A stretch of 48,456 nucleotides of DNA from a virus (IMGVR_UViG_2850808358_000014), one strand, 5' to 3'. Shown: positions 2,273-44,714, counted from the first letter of the stretch. The notes: generated by a model from the sequence alone, not told the origin. Translations and numbers: made by a program.

Positions 2273-2289
2273 TCGGTAATATCAACCAG

Positions 2290-3374: not shown

Positions 3375-3386
3375 CGTTCCCCCTGC

Positions 3387-3676
3387 TTATCGCACCAGTG
3401 GCTGAACGGATACGCCAGAACCCGCAAAAGCGGCGCATTTTTTCGCGTCGGTGTCGACGCTCTCGGGCCAGTTAACGGCGGCGATATTAAATATCCCCGT
3501 CTTGTAACACTGTGCTGATTTCTGCTTTGACGTGTCCACGGGTACGCCGTCAGATAAACAGCCTTGCCAGATTCCTGACCATCCCACGCCTTAAACTCGC
3601 CATTGTCCGCCAGCATCAGCGGAAAAATGTACCAGCGTCGTGGCAACCTGCTGTGTGCCTGCATATAACTCAACAT
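3387..3676 (-). pseudogene. lambda gpD-like head decoration protein, frameshifted
   Basis: Two overlapping ORF fragments; joined they read ...EFKAWDGQESGKAVYLTAYP|VDTSKQ...KKCAAFAGSGVSV, which resembles the lambda gpD core (KLVAWDG...KKRTAFAGTAISIV); the break is at a C run near 3541. Confidence 0.6.
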
Positions 3677-3700
3677 ATGGAGTGCCCATAGAATCTCCCG

Positions 3701-4756
3701 TTAACCAATTTTCACAGTAACAAATTTGCGGATATCTGCCGGAACCGGCTGCGGTGCGCTGTGCGTCTGCACGTACTCAATCGCCGGATCGCCGCTCTCA
3801 ATCCAGTTTTTCGGGTAGTACATGTTTTGCGTTGCGCCCGTTCTTACCGCTTCCGGATCCATAATCGCGCCATAGGCCACCAGACCTTTATTGCTGGTGT
3901 TGCCCAGGACAAGCAAATCAGGCTCAAGGAAATATTTTTCGGTGCCGTCGCTGTCGGTGTATTTGCCGGAATAGACGATAAGGGCCAGATCACCCAGATA
4001 GCCTTTAAAGCTCACCACTTCGCCCAGGTTTTTACACGCCAGCTCTGCGGCGGATTCTGAACCACGGGAAAGATCGTACAGCTCGCGGAATTTTTTAAAG
4101 CTACGTAAGGTGCGCCATACGTCAGCGCCCATAATCATGACGTTGGCGGGGCAGCTGGCCTGTTCGGCGTATAGCTCGATGTCATCTGTCGGATCATGCG
4201 TCTCTTTATTCTGCTCAGACCATTTTTTTCCTGGCCCCTGATGGACAATGCAGTTTGCCGGCATATTCCAGTCGATTTCATAGCGTTCTATGCCTTCGCC
4301 TTCAATGATGTTTTTTCCGGTCGTGACCGCATTCACTGCCAGCCATTCCACACGCGCTTTAATGGCGTTTATCTGGCGGCGCATGTTGCCAGTAATGAGG
4401 CGCATACGTCGCCAGGTGGGGTCGTTAAGCAGTGCCGGATCTTCTCCAGCCATGCGCATGATGGTTTTTGATGGATCGATTTCGTGTTTGGGTTTCATGT
4501 AGCCAGGGCGGATAGTGCTTGTTTCGTACCCTTTATCACGCTGAACCTGGCTACCCACCACAGGCGAACAAAACGCCGACATGGTGACTTCTTCAATGTC
4601 CAGGGTATCCAGCATGACATCTTGTGTGTTGAAGGTTGCTACTTTCGGGAAAAACAGCGTGGTAAACAGCGGACTGAATTTAAATTCCGGGATATCCCCG
4701 CGATTCAGGTACGCGAAAAGCTGGTTAGTGTTAAGTGCCGTTGCTTTGTCTGCCAT
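3701..4756 (-). CDS. lambda gpE-like major capsid protein, 351 aa
   Basis: Collinear similarity to lambda E as recalled (PGYMKPKHE, DPTDDIE, KGYLGD, YPKNW motifs) and near-identical length. Confidence 0.85.
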   Translation of the reverse strand: MADKATALNTNQLFAYLNRGDIPEFKFSPLFTTLFFPKVATFNTQDVMLDTLDIEEVTMSAFCSPVVGSQVQRDKGYETSTIRPGYMKPKHEIDPSKTIMRMAGEDPALLNDPTWRRMRLITGNMRRQINAIKARVEWLAVNAVTTGKNIIEGEGIERYEIDWNMPANCIVHQGPGKKWSEQNKETHDPTDDIELYAEQASCPANVMIMGADVWRTLRSFKKFRELYDLSRGSESAAELACKNLGEVVSFKGYLGDLALIVYSGKYTDSDGTEKYFLEPDLLVLGNTSNKGLVAYGAIMDPEAVRTGATQNMYYPKNWIESGDPAIEYVQTHSAPQPVPADIRKFVTVKIG

Positions 4757-4962
4757 TATTCACCCTCATGAGTCTGATTCATGCCAAGCGCCGCACGTAA
4801 ATAGGCGCGTACCTGCCAGCCTGTTGACGGCTCAACCATCGCCAGCGGATCAAGTCCTGCCGCAATGCCCGCTTTTACGTTCTGCTGGTGGCGTTCCTTG
4901 AGCGCCTCCACGATATCGGGGCTTATGTAAACTGTCACCCCGCCTTTTTTCTCTTCTGTCAT
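4756..4962 (-). CDS. hypothetical protein, 68 aa, translationally coupled to the capsid gene
   Basis: Its stop overlaps the capsid ATG (TAATG); no family recognised. Confidence 0.5.
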   Translation of the reverse strand: MTEEKKGGVTVYISPDIVEALKERHQQNVKAGIAAGLDPLAMVEPSTGWQVRAYLRAALGMNQTHEGE

Positions 4963-4991
4963 AGTCAGAAATTCCTTTTCGACTTAAAAAA

Positions 4992-5019
4992 TTATAACTG
5001 GATGTACATCCAGTTATAA
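4992..5019. promoter_or_regulatory. perfect ~27-bp palindrome TTATAACTGGATGTACATCCAGTTATAA upstream of the capsid operon
   Basis: Perfect dyad with a CTGG-N8-CCAG core about 30 bp upstream of the 68-aa gene; candidate operator. Confidence 0.45.
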
Positions 5020-5139
5020 TTATAATCATAGTTGCATTTTGTGCAATAGAATTGAGTTGCATTGCAAATTATGAAATGATTTACGGCAACAGTAGTCACC
5101 ATGCTGTTAACCTCGTAAGCAAAAGCCCGATAAGCTTCC

Positions 5140-5196
5140 TCCTGTACTTATCGGGCTTTTTTTGGGTACAAAAAGCCGGATTTTCTCCGGCCTGTG
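5140..5196. terminator. pair of hairpin plus T-run terminators (bidirectional)
   Basis: CCCGATAAG...CTTATCGGG followed by T7 on plus; GCCGGA-TTTTC-TCCGGC followed by U-run on minus, almost identical to the hairpin near 2940. Confidence 0.5.
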
Positions 5197-5199
5197 CGT

Positions 5200-5610
5200 T
5201 CAGAACGGAATATCATCACCGTAGGGGTCATCGTCTCCCGCTGGTGGCTGATTACCCTGTGTGCCTGTGGTTTTGCGTCTGTTCCCGCCAGGGCGTGCCG
5301 CTCGGGCACTGATTACGCTGTCGGCAATAACCTGATAACCCTGCCGCGTTTCCCCGTTCTGTCCGGTCCACTGGCTGACCTGCATCGTGCCGGATACGCT
5401 GGCAACGTCGCCTTTTTGATGTTTAGCCAGGAAGTCGGCCTGCTTACCAAATGCCATCACCGATAGCCATAACGTCGCCTGTCCGTCCTGTGCCTGGCTG
5501 CATGGCAGCGATACCGCCATACGCGCCAGCGTCATCGGTGTGCCCTTGCTGGTCTGTTTTACCTGCGGGTCGTCCACCAACCGTCCGTAAGCTGCTATCT
5601 GTGCTGTCAT
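5200..5610 (-). CDS. ssb: single-stranded DNA-binding protein (short phage/plasmid type)
   Basis: OB-fold-like N-terminus, Gly/Gln-rich linker and acidic C-terminal tail ending DDDPYGDDIPF. Confidence 0.85.
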   Translation of the reverse strand: MTAQIAAYGRLVDDPQVKQTSKGTPMTLARMAVSLPCSQAQDGQATLWLSVMAFGKQADFLAKHQKGDVASVSGTMQVSQWTGQNGETRQGYQVIADSVISARAARPGGNRRKTTGTQGNQPPAGDDDPYGDDIPF

Positions 5611-5885
5611 GATTCCACCTCTCCGGTTTTAACGTTGATGGTTGTTACCTGTTCCGCTTCGGCAATCTCCCGTTCTGTCAGCGTGGCAAAGTTTGCCGCT
5701 GCTGTGGTCATGAATGCGCTTATCAGGTCGGGATGTTCCTTCGCGTATCCTTCCCCCGCGTGGCGGTCTATCGTTCTGATTGCCACCTTTAAAGCGTGCT
5801 CTGTCATGTCTAACGCGCGATATTTCGGTTCTGTTCTGTCTCTGCGTTTTTTGAGTGATTTATTAAATTTTCCTGAAGTGTGCAT
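5607..5885 (-). CDS. hypothetical protein (92-aa ORF; true start may be internal)
   Basis: ORF between the origin and ssb; no family recognised. Confidence 0.45.
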   Translation of the reverse strand: MHTSGKFNKSLKKRRDRTEPKYRALDMTEHALKVAIRTIDRHAGEGYAKEHPDLISAFMTTAAANFATLTEREIAEAEQVTTINVKTGEVES

Positions 5886-5929
5886 GTTTATTTTTACCCC
5901 CTCGTTTAAAAAGTTTTGAGTTGTGCCTC

Positions 5930-6160
5930 CCCTTGTCTACCTTATCTACCTTGCTGGCCCTCATGCCAGTAATGGCGCGGCTTTCAGCGGGTAGAGTGTT
6001 TTTATCCACTATCTACCCCGTGTCTACCTCCCTGTCTGATTCAGGTAAAATCAGGTAGAGAGGGTAGATAGTGGGTAGACAGTAAAAAAAAGCTGTCTAC
6101 CTAACTTAATGTACTGAATTAAATGTATTTTCCTTTGCTCAGGTAGACAGCAATTACAAA
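5930..6160. repeat. replication origin: about 10 iterons of consensus YNTCTACC in both orientations plus an AT-rich stretch
   Basis: TTGTCTACC, TTATCTACC, CTATCTACC, GTGTCTACC, CTGTCTACC and inverted GGTAGAG/GGTAGAT/GGTAGAC copies directly 3' of the primase gene. Confidence 0.6.
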
Positions 6161-6163
6161 AAA

Positions 6164-7917
6164 TTATAAAAACGCGTCGCACTCGTCTGTTGTTATTGCG
6201 TTAGTCTGCGTTACCCCCTTAACTTTCCGCGTAATATATTCATGTCCGTAAACTTTTGCGGCAGGCTTCATAGCCTTGCCAAAGTCATTTACGTTTAGCG
6301 GTTTGCTCCTGCCTGCGTATGCCATAAACGCCAGATAGACGCGGTAAAGGCTGTTCCTGGTCGTGTACTTCACTGAATCACCACCGCCACCCATCATCAG
6401 GCCGCGCGCTTCCTCCAGAAAATTCAGGAACTGGCAAAACTCAATAACCGGATCCGTCTGTTGCTTTATTGCCAGTGCTTCATCACCGTCACGCTGTTCC
6501 AGTAGTAAAGCCCGTGCCTTCTCAGGGTCGGTAAAGTTCGCCAGCAATCGGCGGATAATAACGGGGATTTCAGCCGCAATCTTTTCCGGTAGCTCCCTGT
6601 CTTTTTCGGCCTCACTGACGATATTGTCGAAACGGAAAATCACGCGACGACGTGCCACACCTCCGGCCCGTTCGGTGAATATCATCGGGTTGTTGTCGGT
6701 CGCCAGCACCACCGCCCTGATTACCGCCGTGAAACGCTTTTCATATTTCGGGTTAATTTCCACGGGTCGCCGCCCGTGATTTTCTTGATGCCCGTTCCTT
6801 CGCCTGTATATTTCGGCTGGTCAGCCAGGACGATAAGACGACTCCCGACAACCTGCGCACGTCCACCAGCATCATCAAGCGATGTCATTTCAGCGCTTAC
6901 CGTGTTCTGTTTCCCTGCCAGAAGGCTGGCTATGTGTGTGAATGTACTTTTACCGCTCCCGCCGTCTCCGGTGGCCTCAATAAACATCTGCCAGTCGTAC
7001 CGGTTCGCCATAATCATGTAAAGCGCGGCACATATGCGCATCATCTTGCGCGGGTCTTTTCCGGCTGCGTGATCAAGCCATTTATGAAAGTTTGGCGCGT
7101 TGTCGCGGATATTCTCCCCTGGTGCTGGTGGCGTGTACTCAATGCCGTTGTGCGTGGTGATCCAGTTCTCCGGCGTGTGCGGGGAAAATTCCCCCGTTTT
7201 CAGGTTAAGCACACCATTAGTGAACGGTAGCAAATCACTGGACGGCTCGCCCATCGGGTCAGCAATAACTTTTAACGCTTCAACGGCGTTATTAATTGCC
7301 CGCTTGCTGAATGTGGCCCCGTGTTCTGAATAAACCGCCACCATTTCGCGGCTCAGTTCCATTGTGCTGACCGGACACCATATCCCGCCGCGCCATACGT
7401 GAACGATTTCACTTTCCGGATGCACACAAACGCCATCAAATCGACCAGCAAGCATCTGTGCGCGCTCACTGTCTGCCATCTGCGAAAGTTGCGCCTTTTG
7501 CTTTACCGGAAGCTCAATGACCAGACCATCAGAAAGATTCTGGCGTTCACGGGCCAGATATTCGCGCCAGTTCTGCACCTCCTGGCCGTGCATACCCTCA
7601 AGATAAAAATTTGCATCCTGTACACCTGCCGCCGCCAGCTTCTGACCAATCGCCTTGATCATTACAGGCTCAAGATGTCCGGCTCTGTATATGCGTGCTG
7701 ATTTTCTGCCATCCGGCACAATTTGCAGATTATCCAGTTCGGATAGCTGCTGCTCTCCAAGCCACACAGGAGGCTCATTATCTCCGGCTGTACGCGCGTC
7801 ATGTTCCTGCCACTGTTTCGCGTGTGCCCAGGCATCACTACCCGCAAAGATAATTACCTCTGTGTCTTTGTGTTTTATTCCGCGTGGCTGTTTTTTTACG
7901 TTCGGTGCCAGTTTCAT
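6164..7917 (-). pseudogene. P4-family primase/helicase, frameshifted
   Basis: 398-aa fragment with toprim-like N-terminus and Walker A GDGGSGKST, plus a 199-aa fragment in another frame; the join ...ITGGDP|VEINPKYEK falls at a G/C run near 6765. Confidence 0.75.
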
Positions 7918-8213
7918 TTTTTACCCCTGAATACGTTAAGCATCTTTTTTATTTCCTGAATATTGGCGCGTGCTTTCTCCCTGCTGGTGGGCACGTTACG
8001 CGGTACGGCCTGCACAAGAGAAAAATCACGGTCGAACTGATAAACAGGCATCACGCAATCATATTCGTAGCCTTCACGACGGTAGGTTACGCGCCGTTCC
8101 TCCACGCCCTTAATTATTACCGTGCCGCCGTACTTATCGCGGTAAATATCCCCGCGCATGAATTTAGTGCGAGTTTTGCCGCTGGCAGTTAAGCCAGGAT
8201 ATTTAAGTTTCAT
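7914..8213 (-). CDS. hypothetical protein, 99 aa
   Basis: Intact ORF whose stop overlaps the primase start; no family recognised. Confidence 0.5.
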   Translation of the reverse strand: MKLKYPGLTASGKTRTKFMRGDIYRDKYGGTVIIKGVEERRVTYRREGYEYDCVMPVYQFDRDFSLVQAVPRNVPTSREKARANIQEIKKMLNVFRGKK

Positions 8214-8218
8214 TATTT

Positions 8219-8452
8219 TTATTCTCCGGTGTGGGGCGCTTTATACTGGTCGTGTAATGTCTCTATTTCCTGCAACTCATTTATTACAGGCTCAAGAAGC
8301 GTTATTAATGCCGTGACAATCCTTGATTTCTGTTTATCACGCTCATTATCGCCAAATGTTTCCAGACACATTTGCAATATTTCCAACATATTTTCACTGT
8401 GAGAAAGTGCAAGAAATGCGCGGTCTGTTATTTCAATGTAAATATCACGCAT
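8219..8452 (-). CDS. hypothetical protein, 77 aa (AT-rich)
   Basis: Intact ORF abutting the IS110-family left end. Confidence 0.5.
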   Translation of the reverse strand: MRDIYIEITDRAFLALSHSENMLEILQMCLETFGDNERDKQKSRIVTALITLLEPVINELQEIETLHDQYKAPHTGE

Positions 8453-8459
8453 AACCCCG

Positions 8460-21555: not shown

Positions 21556-21606
21556 TCCGGGCCACTTTTCAGAATGATGCCAATCGCTGTCGCCGCTTTC
21601 TCAATA

Positions 21607-22041: not shown

Positions 22042-22050
22042 TGTTTCCCC

Positions 22051-22407: not shown

Positions 22408-22416
22408 AAATGCTCC

Positions 22417-32688: not shown

Positions 32689-32743
32689 GGGTGAAAAATC
32701 CGGTATAAATTTTCAGGCATTAATCAGTAAAAAAGAGGTTTTT

Positions 32744-33110: not shown

Positions 33111-33120
33111 TTTCATCTCC

Positions 33121-33291
33121 TCAGGACAAAGTCCTTAGTTGTTTTATGGTCGTATGCCATGAATTGCCTGAAGCCATAGCCTGAACAAGCACATCCCGAA
33201 TCTGGTGTATCAACCGGACATCAGACAATGTTGCAATCCTGAAGGCTTTTTTATGGGCACTGATTAGCTGTGCTTTGTAATTATTTTTCAT
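33121..33291 (-). CDS. hypothetical 56-aa basic protein
   Basis: Starts 10 bp after the gp27 stop; no family recognised. Confidence 0.45.
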   Translation of the reverse strand: MKNNYKAQLISAHKKAFRIATLSDVRLIHQIRDVLVQAMASGNSWHTTIKQLRTLS

Positions 33292-33301
33292 AACGTAACG
33301 C

Positions 33302-33892
33302 CTACGCTTTCCCCAGCAGTACATCACGGATGCGCTGCTCCAGTTCTTCGCTGATGCCATCCTGCCCGCGCAGTTCTTCACTGACGGCGTTTGCCGCTTC
33401 TTCTGCGAACGCCTGGCGGATTTCTTTCTCGCGCCGGTGGCTGGACATTGCTGTGGATTCCAGACGCTGTGCCGCCAGCATGGCATTTTTCAGCAGGTCA
33501 ATATCCACGTCAGATTCCGGGTTTTCGATTTGCCGCATCATGGCCTTAAAAAGCTGGCTGCGGGCCATTTCCAGAATCAGCTTTGTGGTTTCGCCCATTG
33601 GCTTGTCGCCAAGCTCTGCGGTCAGTGCTGACGTCATTTCACGCATCTGTCGCAGGTTATGGCCTACCTGCTCGACGTTCGTCGCGTAACGGTTCAGACC
33701 GGAACGGGAGAGTTTCATCTCATCCGGCAGGCCAGCGTCTTCAATCAGTGCGTTAATTTCTTCAAGAATACGGGCCTGTGGGATCGCCTTATCACGCAGC
33801 ATTTCATGCAGCGTTTTACGTACGTTTTCCGGCAGTAAATCCACTTTTGAAGCCCGTCCCCGTGTTTTCCTGTCCATCACGCCTCCTGTCAT
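33302..33892 (-). CDS. Mu gp27-like DNA-binding protein (putative small terminase)
   Basis: 196 aa upstream of the large terminase. Confidence 0.8.
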   Translation of the reverse strand: MTGGVMDRKTRGRASKVDLLPENVRKTLHEMLRDKAIPQARILEEINALIEDAGLPDEMKLSRSGLNRYATNVEQVGHNLRQMREMTSALTAELGDKPMGETTKLILEMARSQLFKAMMRQIENPESDVDIDLLKNAMLAAQRLESTAMSSHRREKEIRQAFAEEAANAVSEELRGQDGISEELEQRIRDVLLGKA

Positions 33893-34179
33893 GCACGGGG
33901 ACGCGGACGCTTGACACCGGCAATGCGGGCACGGCCTTCCGCCACATCCTGACCACGGGAGGTCAGCGTTACGACATAAAAGCCGCGCAGGTTTTCCACG
34001 GTGACCAGTTGCTGCTCTGCCAGCCAGTCAATCTGGCCGCGAACCACATCACGGGAAACGTTGTGTCCGTATGCATCCAGACAGTCCTGAAGGATGGATT
34101 CGTTGGCTTCGTTATTGCAGTCCATCAGGGAACGCAGGATGACCAGACGACGGTCTTCGGTCAGAATATCGTTAATCAT
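33889..34179 (-). CDS. Mu gp26-like protein
   Basis: 96 aa, conserved position. Confidence 0.75.
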   Translation of the reverse strand: MINDILTEDRRLVILRSLMDCNNEANESILQDCLDAYGHNVSRDVVRGQIDWLAEQQLVTVENLRGFYVVTLTSRGQDVAEGRARIAGVKRPRPRA

Positions 34180-34496
34180 GAATTACTCCGGTTTACTGCG
34201 TTTTCAAGCAGCAGCTCCAGTTGATGGGAAAATGACTGCACCTGCCGGGACAGCACCCGGATATCGCCGGACAGCTCTGCAATTCGCAGGCGCATTTCGT
34301 GTACATCTTCTGTGCCAGGGATGCTGGCGTAGCGGGTTTCCATTTCGGTCATCCGGTTTTCAAGACGCTCCACACGCTCGGTGCTGGCAAAACTACGACG
34401 CATCGCCCAGACGGCCCCACCGGCGGCGACAGGCAACAGGTACAACAGGTAAGGCCATAACGCTAAAACTGAATCCATTATTCTGCTCCACGGCAC
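34176..34496 (-). CDS. membrane protein with N-terminal TM helix (Mu gp25-like lysis protein)
   Basis: 106 aa; hydrophobic N-terminus LALWPYLLYLLPVAAGGAVWA. Confidence 0.7.
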   Translation of the reverse strand: MPWSRIMDSVLALWPYLLYLLPVAAGGAVWAMRRSFASTERVERLENRMTEMETRYASIPGTEDVHEMRLRIAELSGDIRVLSRQVQSFSHQLELLLENAVNRSNS

Positions 34497-34672
34497 CAGT
34501 GGCAGTAGTTCGCCATCGGCTGCTGTCTCAGCACATCAGGCCGCAGCTTACGACCGCAACCGGCGCACAATACAGGCGGGTCATACGCCGCCGGACGGGG
34601 AATATCACGGGTATTCCCCTGCCAGAGTTCAGCGAGCAGCAGCGCCACCGCCCGGTTCTGGTCTTCGTTCAT
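34478..34672 (-). CDS. small Cys4 zinc-ribbon protein (Mu gp24-like)
   Basis: 64 aa with CxxC...CxxC. Confidence 0.65.
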   Translation of the reverse strand: MNEDQNRAVALLLAELWQGNTRDIPRPAAYDPPVLCAGCGRKLRPDVLRQQPMANYCHWCRGAE

Positions 34673-35216
34673 AAATTTCTTTCCTCCGGGTCTCCTGTTC
34701 CCGGACTGATGCCTTGTCGCGGTTGCACTGCCCGAGCGCTATCAGCAGGTCAGCATTCCAGAGCAGGGATGCTCCCCACGTCAGGGGCTGTGGCATGGGC
34801 GGAACGGGCGTTGCTTCCGTCAGTTCTGCATCAGTTTCGGCAGGATCACCACCGATGGCACGGGTGCGTTTTTCGAGTTCCCGCAACCTGTCAGCAGCAA
34901 CGGCAGGCACAGGACGAGTGCTGCAATTGTCACCGGTAATGGCGGTTGTAATTTTTTGTTTTGCATCATGATGTTCTGTCTCGTCTGCCAGCCGCGCGGC
35001 ACGATTTGCGGCACGGATAGCGGAAAATACCTGCATCGTCTGTTCCTGACTGTGTAACAACCATTCAGCCGTGTTGCGGGCCTGTTGCTCCGTCTGTAAT
35101 TCACGGCGCAGCGTCTGGTTATCGTGGCGGGTGCTGTCCAGCCTGTGCCACAACACCCCGGACAGAACGGCGGCAAACACGGCTGCCAGCAGTAAACTTT
35201 TACTGGCGAAGGTCAT
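34629..35216 (-). CDS. i-spanin-like lysis protein (Mu gp23-like)
   Basis: Begins MTFASKSLLLAAVFAAVLSGVLW (TM helix); in the sequence as given it is fused to lys by the frameshift. Confidence 0.65.
   Translation of the reverse strand: MTFASKSLLLAAVFAAVLSGVLWHRLDSTRHDNQTLRRELQTEQQARNTAEWLLHSQEQTMQVFSAIRAANRAARLADETEHHDAKQKITTAITGDNCSTRPVPAVAADRLRELEKRTRAIGGDPAETDAELTEATPVPPMPQPLTWGASLLWNADLLIALGQCNRDKASVREQETRRKEIYERRPEPGGGAAAR
34820..34969 (-). CDS. o-spanin-like lipoprotein embedded in an alternate frame of the i-spanin gene
   Basis: MMQNKKLQPPLPVTIAALVLCLPLLLTGC has a signal peptide and lipobox. Confidence 0.6.
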   Translation of the reverse strand: MMQNKKLQPPLPVTIAALVLCLPLLLTGCGNSKNAPVPSVVILPKLMQN

Positions 35217-35717
35217 CCGCCCCCTGATATTCCAGATAGCCATTTCCACTTCGCGACGGTTCATCAGTCCTTTCCATTTATGGCCTGCGGCAAACACCCA
35301 GCGGGCCATCTGGTCACGCGCTCCGGCGTAATCACCGGCATTGAGTTTTTTCAGCAGCGTTGATTTACTGAATGCGGTAACACCGGTGTTGAAAATAAAC
35401 GTTGCCAGCGCCGTTTTCTGATATGGCGTCAGCGGCACCCTGACAAGACGATCGATTGCCGCATAAACCGGTTTTAAATCACTGTCGAGAAAAGCCATAC
35501 ACTCCGCATGGCTGTAACGGCGCATTTCGATATCCGGCCCGGTATGTCCCACACAGACCGTAAGCACACTGGCAATATCGCGGTAAGGCATATAAGCGAT
35601 ATTTTCCAGATGGATCAGAGAATGACGGGTCATTTCCTGATAACCACCCACACCGCCACCGGCAATCGTTGCCGCCAGCAGTGCGGCTTTCAGTTTTTTT
35701 GGTATCCCCGCCATCAT
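35200..35717 (-). pseudogene. lys: endolysin Lys (Mu gp22), frameshift near the 3' end
   Basis: MMAGIPKKLKAALLAATIAGGG... matches Mu Lys; the frame slips at a G/C run near 35222 and reads on into the spanin frame (362-aa fused ORF). Confidence 0.85.
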
Positions 35718-35808
35718 GCTTCCCTGAAAAAATGCTCTGATGGCAGTCTAAAAAATCAGATGGCAGGTGCGGGATTATGGTGACAGGAAATAACCGGCAG
35801 GATGCCGG

Positions 35809-36230
35809 TTATTTCTGGCTTTCAGGTGAGAACAGATCAGGCTGATGACGTCGTGTATGCAGCTTTCTCTGGCGGGCAATAATCTGGTAGATCTGCGGCT
35901 GGGACAGGCGGTACTGGCGACGCAGTTCTTCCATGTTACGACCATTGAACTGGCAGTAAAGCAAATCGTCGCGTAACGCGGTCAGGATCGTATCGCCGCA
36001 GGGGATGTAAAACTGCCGCCCCCCAGAAAACAGGACAGGGCAACGGCCTGTTTACGGGCAAGCTCACGGGGATTGCTGACGTTCTGGCGTTTCAGTTCGT
36101 TTTCCAGAACATCAATCAGATCAACCACTGAACGGGGCCAGCGTGATTCCAGTTCCGGGGCCGGGATGTTATCAATATGCCCGATTAACTGGCGAATTGC
36201 CGGATCGTGTTCAAATAAATCATGCTGCAT
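35809..36230 (-). pseudogene. C: late transcription activator C, frameshifted
   Basis: MQHDLFEHDPAIRQLIGHID... matches Mu C up to ...SCFLGG, then slips at a run of about 6 G/C near 36021. Confidence 0.85.
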
Positions 36231-36341
36231 ATTTTCCCCGGTTAACAGACAAAAAGATACACCACGGCACTGATGGTTATCAGAACCACAAGGGCAATCA
36301 CTTTTATCGCATTAATCAGCGTGGACGGCCCGAAACATTCA

Positions 36342-36572
36342 TCACTGAATTTTCTGTACACAATATTTTTCCTTATAACGTTGACAGTGGTGAAGAATTT
36401 CCGGCATATCAACTGACTGCCAGCCTTTCATGTAATAACTGCCGTGGGTGCCATCATGACCGGTATAGTCGCGGGGCGCAGGCCGTGGCCCACCGGCGAC
36501 ACGGTGCAAAACCTCCTGACGCAGCCGCTCACGTCTGCCAAGATGAAAGGATGCATTCCAGCCTTTACCCAT
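36342..36572 (-). CDS. small hypothetical protein between mor and C
   Basis: 76-aa ORF; a possible 46-aa hydrophobic ORF follows at about 36231-36345. Confidence 0.55.
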   Translation of the reverse strand: MGKGWNASFHLGRRERLRQEVLHRVAGGPRPAPRDYTGHDGTHGSYYMKGWQSVDMPEILHHCQRYKEKYCVQKIQ

Positions 36573-36614
36573 GATGATTTCCCCCGGTACGGTTATTCAT
36601 CACAGGATATTGAG

Positions 36615-36645
36615 GACGTAAAAAAAGCCGGATTAACCGGCTTTA
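36615..36645 (-). terminator. rho-independent terminator directly after mor (early-operon terminator)
   Basis: GCCGG-ATTAA-CCGGC hairpin followed by U7 on the minus strand, 9 bp after the mor stop. Confidence 0.55.
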
Positions 36646-36649
36646 CTGT

Positions 36650-37039
36650 TTACAGAAGTGAGGGCTGGTACTGGCGGTATTTCAGCCGTCGCATCCGGCG
36701 AATGGCCTTGTAAACCGTATTGAAAGTGACACCATAACGGGTGGTCAGTTCGCTGACGTTGCGACCGTTAAAATCATTCCAGATACGCAAATCCCGAATC
36801 AGCGAGTCCAGAACCTGACCGCGTGGAATGTAGACCTGACCGCCGCCCAGATGCTTACAGATAGCCACAACAATCTCCAGTGAATGGGCAGGATCAACAC
36901 CCAGCCGGGACAATTCCCCGCGTAGTAAATCGTTCAGCTCCGCCAGCAGTGCCGGAAAGCGTGACGTATCCTCTGCGGGATTGTCAAGATGTGCCAGGAT
37001 GGTGTCATCCTGCAAATCACCAAATAAATCTTCCGTCAT
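36650..37039 (-). CDS. mor: Mor, middle operon regulator
   Basis: 129 aa, MTEDLFGDLQDDTILAHLDNPAEDTSRF... matches Mu Mor. Confidence 0.95.
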   Translation of the reverse strand: MTEDLFGDLQDDTILAHLDNPAEDTSRFPALLAELNDLLRGELSRLGVDPAHSLEIVVAICKHLGGGQVYIPRGQVLDSLIRDLRIWNDFNGRNVSELTTRYGVTFNTVYKAIRRMRRLKYRQYQPSLL

Positions 37040-37586
37040 TGTGCCATCCTCCGTGTCTTTCTGGCATGGGCATAAGCCGCCGTCATGGCATCATAGCCGC
37101 GCAGTTCACGACCAGACGGACTGACCGGCAATGGAATCCCGTGACGGGAAAAGGCTTCACGAATACAGCGGATGTGCCACTGTTTCAGGGTTTCAAGCAC
37201 AACTTGCAACGATTCTCCGTGGCACCAAGCCAGCGTGGAAACACCCTGTCCGCCATTACGTTTCGCCGTCAGGCGCTGAACATATTTATCCAGCGCCACA
37301 TCACCGCCATCGGTAATAAAACCGTCTTCTGCCATCTGCTGCCAGACTTTGTATACCTTCTCGCGGGAGTGACATGCCCCTTAAAGCGGCGACGTGGATG
37401 TTTATTCAGCTTCTTAAAGCCGCGTTCTTTCATGGCATCGAGCACCTGTTCCAGTTGCGTAACCGTAAGCTCGCGGCAACTGGTTTTGCCCGTTTTCTGC
37501 ATCAGAAAAGCGCGGTAAGTGTCGTCGTCGAGTTGTAGCTCCCGACGGGCGACATGGATTAATTTAATCAGGGATGTGCGATTCAT
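37036..37586 (-). pseudogene. gemA: GemA, frameshifted
   Basis: 105-aa and 99-aa fragments; join ...HPRRRFKG|ACHSRE... at a G/C run near 37378. Confidence 0.85.
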
Positions 37587-37655
37587 GATCGTACCTCCGG
37601 AAAGAGGCGGTGCTGCAACACCGCCTGAATTTACACATCAATCAGAGAGGATTTT

Positions 37656-37922
37656 ATGGAAAATAATGTACAACCTTATGATGTTGCAGGTTATGCGATT
37701 GCATCAGCACTGGTGCGCCTTCTGGTGAAGAAGGCGATCATCACCGCAGAAGAGGGCCAAGCCATTTTCAGCTCTTCAGCAGAGATTTTAAAAGATGCGC
37801 CTGCAATGAGAACAAGCCGCCGCGAAAAACTGCAACTGTCAAAGATCATGGAAGACATTATCAGTTCGTTAGACCCAGATGCTGACGGATCTCAAAAGCC
37901 TCAAACACATGAGCGTCAGTAA
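37656..37922 (+). CDS. opposite-strand 88-aa ORF with strong RBS in the early-operon gap
   Basis: AGAGAGGA-N4-ATG; overlaps the 3' end of the upstream early gene by about 60 bp; a competing 56-aa same-strand ORF exists. Confidence 0.35.
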   Translation: MENNVQPYDVAGYAIASALVRLLVKKAIITAEEGQAIFSSSAEILKDAPAMRTSRREKLQLSKIMEDIISSLDPDADGSQKPQTHERQ

Positions 37923-38178
37923 CAATATCCTGGTCTGATAACCCCAGCCTGCGGCGGATGTACTCCTCGCGGGCTGTTTCATTTTGCAGTGCCACTAATG
38001 TTTCCAGACGATTCATTTCGCGGTTGATAATGTCACGAACTTCTCTGGCAGTGAGAGCGTGCTTAATACCATATTCAACGATAGCGCGAACACGTTCCAG
38101 CATCCTTTTTTCAGCCATGACGTTATCAATATTAAGGGGAGTAAATTTAGTTTCATTATCCATATTATTCACCTTCAC
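37861..38178 (-). CDS. Mu early-region protein (gp14-like)
   Basis: 105 aa, conserved position. Confidence 0.75.
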   Translation of the reverse strand: MKVNNMDNETKFTPLNIDNVMAEKRMLERVRAIVEYGIKHALTAREVRDIINREMNRLETLVALQNETAREEYIRRRLGLSDQDIVTDAHVFEAFEIRQHLGLTN

Positions 38179-38347
38179 AATTCATGCACGCCGTGTCATC
38201 GCCCATATCGCAGTGGTTGCATTTCAGCCCGCCACAATGAGGGCACTCTTTCAGATATTCAGGGGCTTCATTACCGCAGGTCGGACATGCCTGTTTCACC
38301 GTGGTGAATGTCCCCAGCCACGAATACGATGTTTCATTGTTTTCCAT
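38165..38347 (-). CDS. small zinc-ribbon protein (Mu gp13-like)
   Basis: 60 aa with CPTC...CPHC...C motifs. Confidence 0.75.
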   Translation of the reverse strand: MENNETSYSWLGTFTTVKQACPTCGNEAPEYLKECPHCGGLKCNHCDMGDDTACMNCEGE

Positions 38348-38903
38348 TGTTTACCTCCGCCTGTTTTTGCGCCCGGATAAATTCGTCAGAAAGGATTTCA
38401 GTCATGCGGCCTTGTGCGGGTGTCATCCCCGTCATGACGTAAATCACATCACCAACACGGAACCACTGGAGAGGTCCGAATATTGTTGCGCTGAAATCCA
38501 GTCCCAGTGCGGGTAAGAGAGCGTCTGTGCGGGCATAAGTGACCGGAATATTCTCCTGCCATATTTTCGCCAGCTCTCTTGCCTGCACCCTGAGATGAGC
38601 AGGTATCCGCGAAGTTCTGGGCCTGCAACTGTTACCTGATGCGGGCCGTTGTACGGTCCACAGCTCCCGCGAGAAGGGGCGCTCATTCCCCGGAAAATTC
38701 ACGCCATGAAAATGACGCCCACCAATACCTGTGCTGAATACTGACCGACAACCACAACCCAGAACCTTATCAAGATGGCGGGCTTCTTCGCGTAGTTTCA
38801 GACAGTCCGCCATAAACTGGTCCCACGCCATCAGTGCTGCGGGATTTGACGTTTTAAAAAACATCACGCCACCTCCTGCACCGCTGCGGGAGCCGGAGAA
38901 CAA
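38334..38903 (-). CDS. Mu early-region protein (gp12-like)
   Basis: 189-aa ORF; N-terminal half has unusual composition. Confidence 0.65.
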   Translation of the reverse strand: MFSGSRSGAGGGVMFFKTSNPAALMAWDQFMADCLKLREEARHLDKVLGCGCRSVFSTGIGGRHFHGVNFPGNERPFSRELWTVQRPASGNSCRPRTSRIPAHLRVQARELAKIWQENIPVTYARTDALLPALGLDFSATIFGPLQWFRVGDVIYVMTGMTPAQGRMTEILSDEFIRAQKQAEVNNGKQ

Positions 38904-39394
38904 TCAAGAATGAGATAACGCAGTACATGGTCGGTGATATTCCAGGCGCTTGAACTGCAAATAAAACGCCCCAGCCGGATATCGATATAAGCCATCACAA
39001 AACGGGGCATTCCCTGTTCGCACATTCTGTTATCCACCTCAGCAACAATGTGGACTGACTCACAGGTCAGCACGCCCGTCGCAAACTCTTTTGCCAGCGC
39101 GGGGATGGTATTACCTTCCACCCAGGGTAATGAGCGACGCCAGTTGCACCACACCGCATCATCAACAGCAGGCTGCTCAGTTGCGTTTCGTCTTACAGGC
39201 GGCGTCGGACGCGGGCGCGGAACGTCATAAAATCCGTTGCATTCGGTGAGCACTCCGGCATCAACCGCATCACGCAGGAAATACACCATTGACGAGGGCA
39301 GCATATTCATTTTTTCAGCCAGAACTCCGCAGGTCAGGCGTCCGTAAGCCCGTAATAATGTGCTGACACCATTCAGAATTTTTGCATCAACCAT
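38864..39394 (-). CDS. Mu early-region protein (gp11-like)
   Basis: 176 aa downstream of gam. Confidence 0.7.
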   Translation of the reverse strand: MVDAKILNGVSTLLRAYGRLTCGVLAEKMNMLPSSMVYFLRDAVDAGVLTECNGFYDVPRPRPTPPVRRNATEQPAVDDAVWCNWRRSLPWVEGNTIPALAKEFATGVLTCESVHIVAEVDNRMCEQGMPRFVMAYIDIRLGRFICSSSAWNITDHVLRYLILDCSPAPAAVQEVA

Positions 39395-39492
39395 GTTTTA
39401 TTCCTCAGTAATCTGTTTCAGGCGCGAGCAATCCCCTGACGTATCGCGCCATAATTAAAAGAATGTGAATTAATTAAATATTAATGGTGGTA

Positions 39493-40017
39493 TTAAATAC
39501 CGGCTTCCTGTTCAAATGGAATAATAGAAAAATCCTCAATGCCTGATTTAACTGTAATTCCGGCAACGCCTGCGACCGCTTTCGGTTCCAGTAAAATCGC
39601 TTCCTTGTTGATTTCCTGCTTCGTGCGAATAAAGCGTTGCAGGCCAAGACGCTCCAGCGTTTCCATCACTGCATCCATACCACGAATACTTACTGATGGT
39701 GGACGGACCCGCCACGATACATCACCGGTGACAAGATTCGCCGTCTTCACTTTGCCGCCGTTCGTCAGTTCGTCGCGGTTCGCTTCACACCATCCCTGAA
39801 CGCCTTTTGAAAGGGTTTCAATATCGGTTTTAATCGGTGCAATCCGGGCTGCAAATTTCTCCGTAATTTCCGCGATGGCATCATTCATTTCCGTTTCCAG
39901 ACGTGATGCTTCGCGCTGTAAATCCCCGATGCGTTTAATATCGGTAATCACCGCATCGCGGTTTTGTGGCACATAAGCCGCTGCGGCACTTTTGATACGT
40001 TTTGCTGGTTTAGCCAT
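39493..40017 (-). CDS. gam: host-nuclease inhibitor protein Gam
   Basis: 174 aa, MAKPAKRIKSAAAAYVPQNRDAV... matches Mu Gam. Confidence 0.9.
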   Translation of the reverse strand: MAKPAKRIKSAAAAYVPQNRDAVITDIKRIGDLQREASRLETEMNDAIAEITEKFAARIAPIKTDIETLSKGVQGWCEANRDELTNGGKVKTANLVTGDVSWRVRPPSVSIRGMDAVMETLERLGLQRFIRTKQEINKEAILLEPKAVAGVAGITVKSGIEDFSIIPFEQEAGI

Positions 40018-40036
40018 AAATTAAAGCTCCTGTTAA

Positions 40037-40336
40037 TTAATATCCGCTGTATACAATGCTGGATACAGCTCGATTGCTTAATTCCATCTTTCGGGCAATG
40101 ACATGAATATCCAGTCCTTCTTTATAAAGTTCACGACATAAATATTTGTCGTGTTCACTGATTCGGTATACACACAATGATATTCCGTGCCTTCTGGCAT
40201 GTGCCCGGAGGGCGGTTGTGGCGACTTTCAGTTTTTCCGCCATTTCTTCAACGGTCATTTTCCCGACGTTGGCTTCGATAAATTCCCGGTCTTCGCGTGA
40301 CCAGCGCTTACGATTACACTTCATGTCAGCCACCAT
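40037..40336 (-). CDS. HTH DNA-binding early protein
   Basis: 99 aa with HTH-like segments (MTVEEMAEKLKVATTALRAHARRHG). Confidence 0.7.
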   Translation of the reverse strand: MVADMKCNRKRWSREDREFIEANVGKMTVEEMAEKLKVATTALRAHARRHGISLCVYRISEHDKYLCRELYKEGLDIHVIARKMELSNRAVSSIVYSGY

Positions 40337-40780
40337 TCAGTACAGCAGAGGCTCGCGCAGTGATGCCGGAATATGCCGCAGCGATAACTGAACCGCTTTC
40401 AGGGCAAGCGAGGAATAACAGCAGCGCGCCCAGCCTTTTGCCATTAACCGGTAATCGCGCCAGATACGCTGCCACATTTCCCGGGCTTCAGGATCTGATG
40501 CGCAGATGTATTCCCGGTCCATGACGTACTCCCATAAATCCACGTTGAACGCACCGCCAAATGCAATGGCGCGGGATATGCTTTCGCCGCAATAACGCGC
40601 ACAGATGCTGTAATGGTCGAAAGCAATCAGGTAAGTCTTTTCACCACAATCATCAACTTTCCGGGCGCAAATAAACTCGCGTAATTCACCACCGTTGTTA
40701 TTGCGTTCCTGAATTCGGATTAATGCCTGAATTTCATTTCGGATTTTGACATTCATTGTCAGCGTTCCTTTCAGTGACAT
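40337..40780 (-). CDS. Mu early-region protein
   Basis: 147 aa, conserved position. Confidence 0.7.
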   Translation of the reverse strand: MSLKGTLTMNVKIRNEIQALIRIQERNNNGGELREFICARKVDDCGEKTYLIAFDHYSICARYCGESISRAIAFGGAFNVDLWEYVMDREYICASDPEAREMWQRIWRDYRLMAKGWARCCYSSLALKAVQLSLRHIPASLREPLLY

Positions 40781-41034
40781 GTTTTTTCAACAGCCATTTC
40801 AGTGACACTGCCACCTGTGATGACACCATCGTTTTTCAAAATCTCAATGGCTTCATGAGCTGACTCATTAATTATTTTCTGGCTTTTGTTAAGCACCAAT
40901 AACGCCACCAGACCTGCAAGTGTAGCCTCATCCCCTTCCATTTCCACACTACCACCTACCGCAATACTGGTGCGCAAATGCCGTCCTTTAGTTCCAGATA
41001 CTGTATTTTTAATTTCAATAATTACCTTTGCCAT
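40771..41034 (-). CDS. Mu early-region protein
   Basis: 87 aa, conserved position. Confidence 0.7.
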   Translation of the reverse strand: MAKVIIEIKNTVSGTKGRHLRTSIAVGGSVEMEGDEATLAGLVALLVLNKSQKIINESAHEAIEILKNDGVITGGSVTEMAVEKTCH

Positions 41035-41045
41035 TTTGTTTCTCC

Positions 41046-41300
41046 TTATTGATTCTGAATAACTGCGCTGGCTTTTACCTTCGCGCCTTTTACCTGCTTA
41101 AAGAAAACCGCGCTGCACCACGGACAACATGCAAAGGAGTCCCATACTTCATTTTCTGGTGAGCATTGCGTCATAATTTGCTCTTTGCATTTGGGGCAAT
41201 TAAATGCAGTCAGAGGCACATTGTTATTCTGTACCCGTTTAACCCATTCAATATATTTTTCAGCTTTAGTACACATCGTTATCTCCAGATAATCTGGCAA
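41046..41300 (-). CDS. Cys-rich small early protein
   Basis: 84 aa with CPKC...CPWC. Confidence 0.7.
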
Positions 41301-41506
41301 CCATTAAGACGGGCCGTCCATACAGAACGGGCCACCCCGGACTTATGCTCCATAATTCTGACCGCGTTTTTTACCAGTTCCACCGGTGGGTAAGTGATTT
41401 CAAGAATCGGACGCGCTACGCCGAGATATGATTCATTTACATGACTCCCGCGCGCCTGTAACCAGTTCTGCGCATCCGTTGCCATTTTTATATTTCGGGC
41501 CATCAT
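41279..41506 (-). CDS. kil: Kil
   Basis: 75-aa ORF directly downstream of B, the position of Mu kil. Confidence 0.75.
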
Positions 41507-41521
41507 AATTTCTTCTCCTTC

Positions 41522-42459
41522 TTAATTACGCAGCAGCGTTGAAATATCAACGTCCAGGTCTAATTCACGGAAAGCCTGACGCAGATAATCTTCGTTAACA
41601 CGCTCACCTTTACCGTGAGCCGTCATGGCGGCAAGGCGAAGTGAATGATTCAGAATGCGAAGCGCACCTGGTTTCTGCGCAATCTGCTGTAATAACTCCA
41701 GTTCTTTTTCGCCGTTAATCTGCCAGGCATCCGCAATAGCTTTTACATCGGCTTTTTTGGTTTTATTAATTGCAGTGCGCTTTGCAATACGGGAAAACAG
41801 ACGGGCAAATTCAACCGTTCTGTTACCCCCGTCATATTTGAATAAACCCGGTGATTTCCCATCAGTACAAGGCCAATACGGGTTGATTCCTGTAACAGGC
41901 GGAGTTCTTCCAGAACTTCGGCACCAAGATGATCAGCTTCGTCGATGATAACCAGCCCCTGTGTACCTTCAAGGCGACGTCGCAGGGCACGGGAGAGTGG
42001 CCCTTTACGGCGTGGTGCGTCATTCATTCCCAGCTCAAACGCCAGTTCAGTAAGACATTCCAGAACGCTGGCACAGGATGGCGTAATGGTGATCATCCAG
42101 ACATTGTTATTGGTGCGGCGATATTCACGGGCCGCTTCGGTTTTGCCCACACCAGGATTGCCACATACAACAGCAATACTTTCAGTCAGGCTGGCAAAAC
42201 GCATACTTGTCCAGATTTGTTTTACCGTCTGCGTTTCCACAAAGCGGGGCGGTTCAGGTAGTTCTGCAACTGCATGATATTTTTCCAGCCAGCGTTGCAG
42301 CATTTGTGAAACACGCTCGTTATCCCCGTTGTACTTATCATTGATAAAACTACTGATAGTTCCGGTAGAAAGCCCGCTCTCAAGAGCAATTTGTTTAAAG
42401 GTGGTTTCTTCATTTTCTACAAGCGTGCGCAGTCCTGCGCGAATATCGGAAATATTCAT
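41522..42459 (-). pseudogene. B: transposition ATPase B, frameshifted
   Basis: MNISDIRAGLRTLVENEETTFKQIAL..., Walker A GNPGVGKT; frame slips after ...YSNMTG at a G/C run near 41829, C-terminal part continues in another frame. Confidence 0.9.
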
Positions 42460-42497
42460 CTGAATAACCTCGTAATTAAATTTTGTTTAAACGTTAA

Positions 42498-44494
42498 TTA
42501 AATGGCTTTTTTACGTCTGTTCTGTTCCAGAATATCCAGCGAATGATTCAGATATTCATCACGCTCAGTTTCGTATTCATCATCACGCTCCTGATTCTTC
42601 ACTCGTTCCGTATTACCGGAAGGCCGGAAAATGCCGACAATTCGTGATTCTGGTGCTTCAGGTTCGGCTATCTGCGGCAGCAGCTCTGCCACTTCCAGTG
42701 CATCCATTTGTTTCTGTGCCTTAATCGCTGCTTTCGTCGCAGATTTCAGTTGTTTCTGGCGGCGGCGATATTCACGGCCTGCCGCAGCATCATTAAACGC
42801 AACAGGTGCCAGACATTCCGCTTCACAGATAAACCGACCGTCCAGGGTGTAGCAATAAACCGTGCTGTGTAACTGCTGTGGATCAAATCTGACCACAACT
42901 TTTTTCACTCCGGCATTCATTAACGCCATGTTGTAATAAACGTTTTTCGCGCCTTTAAGGGAGCCGCCAACTTTAAGCGCGAACTCGCCTTTACGTGAAA
43001 CGTTCACCGCCTCGGCAGGCAGTAACAGCATCCGTTTTTGCTCTTCGGTAGGCTTACGCACAATCGTTCTGGCGTATTCACGCTCAAAAACGTCATCAAA
43101 CGAAAGTTTGCCTCCGCACATTTCTGTTTCACGGCCTGTTCTGGCATTGAACATCGCCACACCTTCGGCAAGGGTTTTCAGAAACAGCTCTGCATCAACA
43201 GCGCGGTCGCCATAGTTATCAGGTTTTGCCTGCGGATTTGGCCCCGTATATGCGCCAGCCAGTGCCGGATGCTTATCAACGTATTCCTCAAGCCCACCAA
43301 CACCGAAAGCACGTTCAACAGGTTTTGCCTGGCCCCAGCCTTTACCGGCAACAACGCTTGTCCAGTGCATTTTCGCCCCATCAGTAAAAACAGTCCTTTT
43401 GGATCGTCCTCTTTTACCTTAAAGCGGTAGCGATTGGGCGCGCCTCCCGTCAGCCATTTATTCGCAGCACCACGGGTGTTATCAATGGTGATGTGAAAAT
43501 CCTCCGGGATACCGTAGCGAGTCACAACATCCATGAACGAGAGGCGAATTGAATCAATGTTCTCGCTCACATCGCAGCGCCAGCCCAGAATTTTTCGGGT
43601 TTTCACATCCTGCCAGAACCATGTTTTCGGACGGATCACATCACCGTTAAACCAGCGTACAAAGACGTTATGCAGATAACCGTCGCCGTTGATCCACTGC
43701 ATGGCGTCCAGGTGTTCCACAGTTCGCTGCTGTGCCGGTATCAGATGCATCAGTGCATGTTCACCTTCACGACAGGCAACAACCATTGCCTCGTCCAGTT
43801 GCTGAATCCGGCGAAAGGCCGTGGCACGGGAGGGAATACTCCAGCCATGCTCGCGGGCTGCCAGTTCCAGACGCTCATAACATTTGCGGAAGGCGGGTTT
43901 TTCCGGTCGCAGATAATCTGCAATCAGAAACTGCCAGGCATCCTCGTCAAATTCACTTTTGTGAACATTGCGACGGGATGCTCCACGTCCATCAACAAGT
44001 GCAGCCGCCCAGTCAGGCTTCGCAAACTTCTGTACCTGGTAATACTTGTCCCGCAAAGTGGATGCGCTGACCTGGTAATGCCCTGCAACGGTCGCAAAAG
44101 CCGTTTTCGTTGAAATCCCCTGGTTCAGCATTTCGTCTGCAGCCTGAACCGCAGGCAACCATTTTTCAGCAAGTCTGCGCTGGGAATCGCTGGCGTTATC
44201 CCATTTGCTCCACAGTGCCTCACGATCATAATCATGGGCTTCCAGCGTGGGGCGGGCGATTTCAAAATACCCCTGGCTTGTTTCTATTTGCTCAGATTTT
44301 AATAACAACTCAGCACGTGCTGCCGCTGGTAGAACTGATATATGAAATTCCAAAGCCTTTGAACCCGTACGCTTGCGACGTAGTTCTGGATGATTGGCTG
44401 CAAGCTTTTCAAGATTGCGGCGAATACTCACCTCATGTTTAGGAAAGCATGACATTCCTACGCATTCTTGCGCTGTTACCCAATGGGTTAACAT
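42498..44494 (-). pseudogene. A: DDE transposase A, frameshifted
   Basis: 448-aa and 290-aa fragments both match Mu A; join ...FLLMG|AKMHWTSVV at a G/C run near 43377; N-terminal ~65 aa differ from Mu (D108-type). Confidence 0.9.
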
Positions 44495-44714
44495 GATGTT
44501 TTCTCCATATACCGAGAAGGCCAAATCTGGGCTGGTTCCATATCCAAATATCTAGCAATGATTGCTTCGTATCGTGGTATATGGCAGCGAAATACGTTAC
44601 GCATAGTGTCAGGCTTTAAGCCTGCCTCTCTGGATAATTGAGATAGTGTCTTCCCTTCATACGAACAGCAGCCTTTATCTGCTCTGCGTGCCAGTCTTGG
44701 TTTTTTGCTGACAT
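44488..44714 (-). pseudogene. ner: Ner-like early regulator (D108-type), frameshifted
   Basis: MSAKNQDWHAEQIKAAVRMKG then a frame slip near 44654; corrected it reads ...KTLSQLSREAGLKPDTMRNVFRCH... and ends overlapping the A start. Confidence 0.75.

Follow-up and report, generated by a model that had tools for sequence, protein, structure and literature searches.

The window analysed here, the whole 48,456-nucleotide stretch IMGVR_UViG_2850808358_000014, contains a complete Mu-like prophage that interrupts an ISEc20 copy, with parts of a phage-satellite-like island on either side and a partial IS4 copy at the left edge (Table 1). The prophage runs from its mom/right end at 8888 to its c/left end at 45830, carries the termini TG...CA (TG at 8888, CA at 45829-45830) and is bordered by a target-site duplication whose sequence could be read directly. 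As both the ends and the duplication are perfect, the Mu insertion is recent. The satellite island resumes at 46879-48456, extends beyond the window and is located between yejO and tRNA-Pro/yejM. Two diagnostic sequences, the frameshifted primase fragment and the open-reading frame spanning the IS-Mu junction, are found in a single public record, CP026877.1 (hereafter the source). A look-up of the junction open-reading frame returned no independent assembly of the same Mu insertion, only the source, and a look-up of the truncated tape-measure fragment found no match on record. No genome in the species-representative collection gave an exact match to the right edge of the window.

The prophage resembles SfMu, Mu and D108 (genus Muvirus) in its gene order, which runs from c-ner-A-B to gin-com-mom, in its invertible G segment, in its TG...CA termini and in its 5-bp duplication. 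Unlike SfMu or Mu, it has the immunity region (c, ner and the 5' end of A) of the E. coli N1286 and SE11 type, and unlike SfMu, Mu and D108 it carries an additional cassette of ~0.6 kb between terS and terL and a TGA at codon 174 of N. The G segment, across which gene S lies, has the opposite orientation to that in the SfMu record, and SfMu gp11 and gp14a had no match in the window.

Table 1. Features of the window and positions at which a homopolymer is one base short, with the state in related sequences (coordinates from the first nucleotide of the window; G3, C5 and the like denote a run of that base and length).
Feature	Affected codon	Site	Span or run	Strand	Observation
IS4 copy, partial			1..1049	+	runs past the left edge of the window
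Phage-satellite-like island, left part			1050..8443	-	primase, SSB, lambda-E-like major capsid and gpD-like decoration genes
gpD-like head-decoration gene (PF02924)	42 of 92		3540..3542	-	G3; G4 in sister genomes
Satellite intergenic			5989..5991	.	G3; G4 in 6/6 relatives
Satellite primase gene	385 of 584		6764..6766	-	G3; G4 in 6/6 relatives
ISEc20 (IS110-family), left part			8444..8887	+	5' part of transposase gene; 99.6% to intact copy in L010; Mu-interrupted
Target-site duplication GCCAG (5 bp), copy 1			8883..8887	.	read directly
Mu-like (SfMu/Mu/D108-type) prophage, complete			8888..45830	-	blastn 95-99.9% identity to SfMu, Mu, D108
P	59 of 377	17735	17730..17734	-	C5; C6 in 8/8 references
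N	347 of 495	18350	18347..18349	-	C3; C4 in references
N, Trp174 TGG->TGA (C->T)	174		18866..18866	-	T in window, C in all 7-8 references; not in a homopolymer
N	166	18890	18886..18889	-	C4; C5 in SfMu, CTCCC (length as C5) in other references
Tape measure	550 of 690	19814	19812..19813	-	C2; C3 in references
Tail sheath gene L	224 of 495	23233	23230..23232	-	C3; +1 base in references
I	83 of 361	27287/8	27283..27287	-	GGGGC; GGGGGT in all references (base lost and adjacent substitution)
F/gp30	82 of 439	29271	29266..29270	-	G5; G6 in references
gp23 (Rz-like spanin)	126 of 128	34841	34839..34840	-	G2; G3 in references
Endolysin gene lys	164 of 171	35225	35220..35224	-	C5; C6 in references
Late activator gene C	69 of 140	36025	36019..36024	-	C6; C7 in SfMu, +1 base in 15/15 references
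Intergenic gp20/C		36240	36236..36239	.	C4; C5 in 14/15 references
gemA	74 of 183	37368/9	37365..37368	-	GGGA; GGGGC in 15/15 references (base lost and adjacent substitution)
B	210 of 312	41831	41826..41830	-	C5; C6 in 15/15 references
Transposase gene A	~371 of 662-665	43380	43376..43379	-	C4; +1 base in 14/14 references
ner	21 of 75	44653	44653..44655	-	C3; C4 in 11/11 references with the same immunity region
Target-site duplication GCCAG, copy 2			45831..45835	.	read directly
ISEc20, right part			45836..46878	+	
Satellite ASH-family gene	62 of 179		47869..47874	-	A6; A7 in 6/6 relatives; sole site in the window outside a G/C run

Nineteen homopolymers in the window, 15 in the Mu-like prophage and four in the satellite, are one base short relative to every alignable relative, and these split or truncate 16 genes. 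A blastn comparison of the window with seven Mu-family references (SfMu, Mu, D108 and four E. coli prophages) identified 14 Mu sites with exactly one base missing against all alignable references; extending the panel to as many as 15 references confirmed these and added the site in ner, where 11 of 11 references were longer. Each affected gene was recovered by tblastn as pieces in different frames. All 19 window-private indels are one-base deletions, with no insertions, and the homopolymers concerned have 3-7 bases in the references. None of the deletions is present in any of up to 15 related prophages. The initial annotation had reported at least 15 split genes, an observation that both searches confirmed, although the count did not hold, as its own list names 14 genes and 15 junctions; that list also omitted gp23/Rz, the ASH-family gene, the two intergenic sites and the nonsense codon in N at 18866. 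Its description of one missing base at a G/C run was right about the single base throughout and about the run at 18 of the 19 sites, the remaining one being an A run (A7->A6). At two sites (27287 and 37368) the deletion is accompanied by substitution of the adjacent base. Other differences were set aside: site 37605 is natural variation common to SfMu, D108 and two prophages, and apparent frameshifts at 12631, 12689, 38806, 38872, 40022, 45517 and 45597 are differences from individual references in mosaic, intergenic or alignment-end regions and are not private to the window.

The frequency of loss, pooled over 61.7 kb, climbed steeply with run length: a base was missing from 0.2% of G/C runs of three (2/939), 3.0% of runs of four (7/231), 11.8% of runs of five (6/51), 50% of runs of six (4/8) and one of four runs of seven or more, against none of 5732 A/T runs of up to six and two of 27 of seven or more. 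Restoring one base per site rendered every split gene full-length and collinear at 92-100% identity, after which the N1286 proteins c, ner and A and most proteins of SfMu aligned in full; the lesion left after repair was a single stop, in N. C, lys, gp23 and L show zero substitutions relative to SfMu, the missing base being the sole nucleotide difference. The ratio pN/pS was 0.18 for the split and 0.10 for the unsplit genes, which indicates that both sets are under purifying selection. The initial suggestion that the prophage would be lysis-defective if the breaks were real goes too far, because the lys frameshift alters only the last seven residues; the lesions in lys and Rz lie close to the C-termini, where even real ones would have little effect.

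The same defect is present in host genes just beyond the window, with two sites in yejO and one in ccmF (3 in 7.3 kb); the density of deletions is 0.41 per kb in the host DNA of the source and 0.41 per kb in Mu; both IS4 copies and the satellite also carry them. As a control, 6.8 kb of host DNA on the right side of the window had no errors against 1.4 expected (P=0.24), but it holds too few long G/C runs and is uninformative. Alignment of the 7.3 kb from yejO to ccmF in eight assemblies revealed five indel sites, all of them -1 in C5/C6 runs, and 11 gap instances, all 11 of which fall in five CP0268xx assemblies and none in three assemblies from other projects. Identical sites recur across three clades, whilst the nearest sister in each clade, sequenced elsewhere, is without the deletions. 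The gap pattern also conflicts with the substitution tree; for example, three clades each have one member affected at the same site. Over 20.2 kb of satellite and host DNA common to the source, its batch-mate CP026845 and JARKNR01 from another project, a three-way alignment yielded six private gaps in the source (all -1), none in JARKNR01, and eight private -1 gaps in G/C runs with zero private substitutions in CP026845. Extrapolation of 0.41 per kb to 5.13 Mb gives about 2,000 frameshifts, a number that is incompatible with a living cell.

Accessions CP026774 to CP026878, with CP026832 among them, have been credited in the literature to Kim et al. 2018 and PacBio sequencing, and this block, within which CP026877 lies, is attributed to 59 historical Shigella genomes sequenced by PacBio only. 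The adjacent CP026878 is the chromosome of another strain. Judging from these neighbouring accessions, CP026877 itself was probably PacBio-sequenced. Homopolymer-length errors are the most common residue in long-read-only assemblies (PMC8812927). The sequence comparisons argue strongly that the split genes are an artefact of a long-read-only (PacBio) consensus, in which homopolymers, mainly of G/C, were under-called by one base, and we regard this as very probable. The error would have arisen in base-calling or consensus, and the true DNA would almost certainly have one base more at each of the 19 sites. A homopolymer assembly error had been preferred to decay from the outset, and the sign and run length of the changes, the outcome of repair, selection, host density and recurrence in the batch, five independent lines of evidence, all agree with that preference: the indels are one-base deficits against all alignable references, and 19 of 19 are confined to homopolymers. 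The pattern matches known long-read-only assembly errors (Polypolish, PMC8812927; Kastor, PMC12007338), which are one-base, confined to homopolymers and break genes into overlapping open-reading frames in different frames, are specific to batch and platform, and can be removed by means of close relatives or short-read polishing (PMC8812927, PMC12007338). Nothing essential differs here from such errors, beyond the exclusive occurrence of deletions, the strong bias to G/C over A/T and, at two sites, an adjacent miscalled base.

The nonsense substitution in N (W174*) falls outside the error signature and may be a genuine mutation. We tested whether window-private substitutions cluster near indel sites, as enrichment would have placed W174* within an error patch, and there was no enrichment (3/63 against 1.65 expected, P=0.23). 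If genuine, W174* would leave the prophage tail-defective.

Genuine prophage decay, in which real slippage frameshifts arose after lysogeny and left a dead, transposition-defective element, is very unlikely. Pseudogenes and IS elements abound in Shigella genomes and homopolymer slippage produces 1-bp indels more often than any other natural process, both of which favour decay, as do the character of W174*, a substitution that resembles a real inactivating mutation, and the scatter of window-private substitutions, which do not gather around the indel sites. The many interrupted reading frames in an IS-rich chromosome are likewise reminiscent of cryptic-prophage decay in Shigella. However, real decay combines IS insertions, deletions, nonsense codons and indels of either sign, passes from ancestor to descendant and goes with relaxed selection, whereas here one type of lesion with one sign runs against the phylogeny in genes under purifying selection. 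Inside Mu there are no insertions, larger deletions or IS elements, and one nonsense codon stands against 15 frameshift-type sites; the split genes are constrained like the intact ones, four of them without a substitution relative to SfMu. The perfect Mu ends and target duplication speak for a recent insertion, lesions of equal density occur in the satellite, the IS4 copies, intergenic DNA and host genes such as ccmF, and 0 of up to 15 related prophages has any of the deletions.

Still less probable is that the deletions are real but recurrent and independent in historical Shigella stocks, for example through slippage-prone replication or repair, with parallel frameshifts at identical sites in ccmF, yejO and the prophage; it is more likely than this that W174* alone is real, in a Mu that is freshly transposed but tail-defective. 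A real mutator history, in which a mismatch-repair-deficient strain suffered slippage deletions throughout its chromosome, Mu included, would account for lesions at similar density beyond Mu, in host genes and other mobile elements, but it is more doubtful again: it requires an independent history at identical sites in five strains of three clades from one batch, whereas the nearest sister of each clade from another project is clean. A strain lacking mismatch repair would be expected to show numerous transitions and gains as well as losses of a base (+1 and -1), against the eight private indels and zero private substitutions of CP026845 in 20 kb, and a cell with ~2,000 frameshifts in its genome would not survive.

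In tailed phages, those of the Mu type among them, a tail assembly chaperone gene that lies upstream of the tape measure is read with a programmed frameshift. That the breaks are functional, as programmed frameshifts or phase-variable G/C tracts, is the least credible reading despite this precedent and the annotation of genes 41 and 41.5 in D108, as 0 of the 19 sites lie in the gp41/41.5 chaperone region, the sites fall at arbitrary scattered codons with two intergenic, the runs are mostly of 3-6 bases and too short for contingency loci, and the same proteins are encoded in a single frame in every related phage.

Under the preferred reading of a consensus artefact, restoring the missing bases would give a complete, recently transposed Mu-like prophage whose host site is an ISEc20 copy within the satellite island, with ner, A, B, gemA, C, lys, F, I, L, the tape-measure gene and P intact. 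False frameshifts, probably ~0.4 per kb in CP026877.1 and its batch-mates, would inflate pseudogene counts, break prophage-completeness calls and possibly be confused with Shigella genome decay. The prophage itself is best regarded as an SfMu-like element that is complete and recently transposed, with intact genes for transposition, regulation, lysis and morphogenesis, N being a possible exception.

The window was compared by alignment with seven Mu-family references and all gaps were tabulated, as the initial annotation had proposed; exactly one base is missing relative to all alignable references at 14 places, and a wider panel added the ner site, for which only prophages that share this immunity region can be aligned and where 11 of 11 references carry the extra base. 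The affected genes lie in pieces in different frames by tblastn, as had been claimed, although the initial annotation counted at least 15 split genes while naming 14, and it overlooked Rz, the ASH-family gene and both intergenic sites. All 19 lesions are one-base deletions with no insertions, in agreement with the one missing base proposed for each join that the initial annotation traced, and most sit at G or C runs as described, the exception being the A run of the ASH-family gene. The lys and Rz sites fall at most seven and at most two codons before the stop, respectively. At the I and gemA sites the missing base is accompanied by a miscalled neighbour, a change private to the window among 7–15 references. 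A further candidate at 37605 was rejected as natural variation. In gp29, the portal gene, a cluster of three window-private substitutions spanning 7 nt (30602-30608) creates a long C run (~C8) which occurs in no reference and keeps the frame.

One-base deletion sites and mobile-element parts in the window
Feature	Position	Remark
P	17735	
N	18350, 18890	
Tape measure	19814	
L	23233	
I	27287	
F/gp30	29271	
gp23/Rz	34841	
lys	35225	
C	36025	
Intergenic	36240	
gemA	37368	
B	41831	
A	43380	
ner	44653	
Satellite gpD-like gene	3540	vs near-identical sister genomes
Satellite intergenic	5989	vs near-identical sister genomes
Satellite primase	6764	vs near-identical sister genomes
Satellite ASH-family gene	47869	A7 to A6; vs near-identical sister genomes
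ISEc20 halves	8444-8887, 45836-46878	both match intact copies at ~99% identity
Satellite island parts	1050-8443, 46879-48456	extending outside the window
Island gene content		primase (D5-type), SSB, lambda-E-like major capsid protein, gpD-like decoration protein, PerC-like regulator, Icd/ASH-like genes, integrase
IS4 copy (part)	1-1049	

Over a pooled 61.7 kb, made up of the window and its flanks in the source record, the shortened fraction of runs climbs with run length: for G/C runs, 2 of 939 were shortened at length 3, 7 of 231 at length 4, 6 of 51 at length 5, 4 of 8 at length 6 and 1 of 4 at length 7 or more, and for A/T runs none of 5732 up to length 6 and 2 of 27 at 7 or more. Restoring one base per site returns all split genes to full length, collinear with the reference proteins at 92-100% identity, and leaves no other lesion except a stop in N. 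Relative to SfMu, not one substitution occurs in C, lys, gp23 or L, yet each is one base short. The ratio pN/pS is 0.18 in split and 0.10 in unsplit genes, and purifying selection has acted on the split genes until the present. A single lesion type and sign, together with an intact selection signal, contradict real decay of the prophage, a mutator history and programmed frameshifting alike as the origin of the split genes.

The frameshifted primase fragment is found in a single public record, CP026877.1 (GCA_002950035.1, 5.13 Mb), as is a chimeric ORF spanning the ISEc20–Mu junction. Two papers attribute accessions either side of it (CP026774 to CP026878) to Kim et al. and term CP026832 "a PacBio sequence"; from this accession block, CP026877 is presumably a PacBio Shigella assembly as well. 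Errors retained in long-read-only assemblies are mostly of homopolymer length (PMC8812927). A three-way alignment spanning 20.2 kb shows six private gaps in the source, all losses of one base in homopolymers; its batch-mate CP026845 has eight, all losses of one base in G/C runs of 4-6 and with no private substitutions, and JARKNR01, from another project, has no gaps. In the source, the island lies between two IS4 copies, and the private deletions of one differ from those of the other.

The strongest test of the artefact reading is an alignment of host DNA from eight assemblies over 7.3 kb, from yejO via narP, ccmH and ccmG to ccmF. It contains five indel sites, all losses of one base in C5/C6 runs, and all 11 gap instances fall within the five CP0268xx assemblies (CP026877, CP026836, CP026845, CP026875 and CP026846), with none in AERN01000081, CP119446 or JARKNR01. 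Substitutions in the same alignment define three clades, each joining a batch assembly to a non-batch sister. One indel site strikes a single member of every clade, another strikes four batch assemblies from two clades, and the ccmF gap is common to the source and CP026845 and absent from the closest sister of CP026845; the gap pattern tracks sequencing batch, not descent. Private substitutions number 0-1 per assembly, and substitution errors appear rare in the batch. The host DNA of the source has three sites (two in yejO, one in ccmF), or 0.41 per kb, which equals the density in Mu (15 in 36.9 kb) and extrapolates to ~2,000 frameshifts genome-wide, which no viable cell could carry. No sites occur in 6.8 kb of host DNA on the right of the window, with only 1.4 expected from its run content. 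Host genes struck at equal density and a batch-specific recurrence at odds with phylogeny also contradict the three rival origins named above. The homopolymer-length assembly error preferred in the initial annotation is strongly supported, and very probably explains the split genes.

Over yejO–ccmF and the satellite, CP026845.1, CP026836.1, CP026875.1 and CP026846.1 carry one-base G/C-run deletions of their own (for example, ccmF is split into 222+425 aa or 161+495 aa, and yejO is also split), so the data-quality problem is batch-wide and extends beyond CP026877.1.

The Mu-like prophage is complete; it is on the minus strand, with its mom end at 8888 and its c end at 45830, and shares 95-99.9% identity with Shigella phage SfMu, Mu and D108. 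Its ends are TG...CA, bounded by a perfect 5-bp target duplication (GCCAG, 8883-8887 and 45831-45835) within the transposase gene of ISEc20 (IS110-family), which is itself nested in a phage-satellite-like island. That island separates yejO from tRNA-Pro/yejM and has IS4 copies on both sides in the source strain. Sister genomes share the satellite, its location and the ISEc20 insertion, and they lack Mu, so the Mu insertion, known from the CP026877.1 record only, is the most recent event. Relatives of the island share ~90% identity with it and are widespread across E. coli, CFT073 among them. An extra ~0.6 kb between the small and large terminase genes (32688-33312) is absent from SfMu, Mu and D108; it holds two or three small ORFs, none of which matched Pfam and one of which matches phrog_21398 (unknown function), and the whole cassette occurs in one of 5,426 complete E. 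coli genomes (RM8082). The invertible G segment (10568-13650) is inverted with respect to the reference records of SfMu and Mu, so the expressed tail fibre is an S-constant/S' fusion (ORF 12634-14145, 503 aa) with U' (12103-12630). The immunity region (44288-45400; c repressor, ner and the 5' end of A) differs in type from SfMu, Mu and D108 and shares 99.6-99.8% identity with prophages of E. coli N1286 and SE11. An identical 202-aa repressor recurs in 304 indexed blocks of a public collection; those read come from many different chromosomal sites.

The stop that N keeps after repair lies at minus-strand codon 174, where the plus strand at 18866 reads T against C in all 7-8 references; this C-to-T change is private to the window and turns Trp174 (TGG) into TGA. 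Apart from its lesions and a second private C-to-T change (18906, Ala161Thr), N is identical to SfMu. The change at 18866 is not a homopolymer error. Its proximity to the 18906 substitution (40 nt) and to the 18890 deletion (24 nt) raised the suspicion of a low-quality patch; against this, the 63 window-private Mu substitutions show no enrichment around the indels (3 lie within 30 nt of one vs 1.65 expected, P=0.23), and substitution errors seem rare in the batch, so W174* is possibly genuine, at about even chances or somewhat better. Mu N amber mutants make heads and lack tails. A real W174* would therefore leave the prophage tail-defective, with transposition and lysis still intact. The split genes are a data-quality issue of the public record, not a biological feature.
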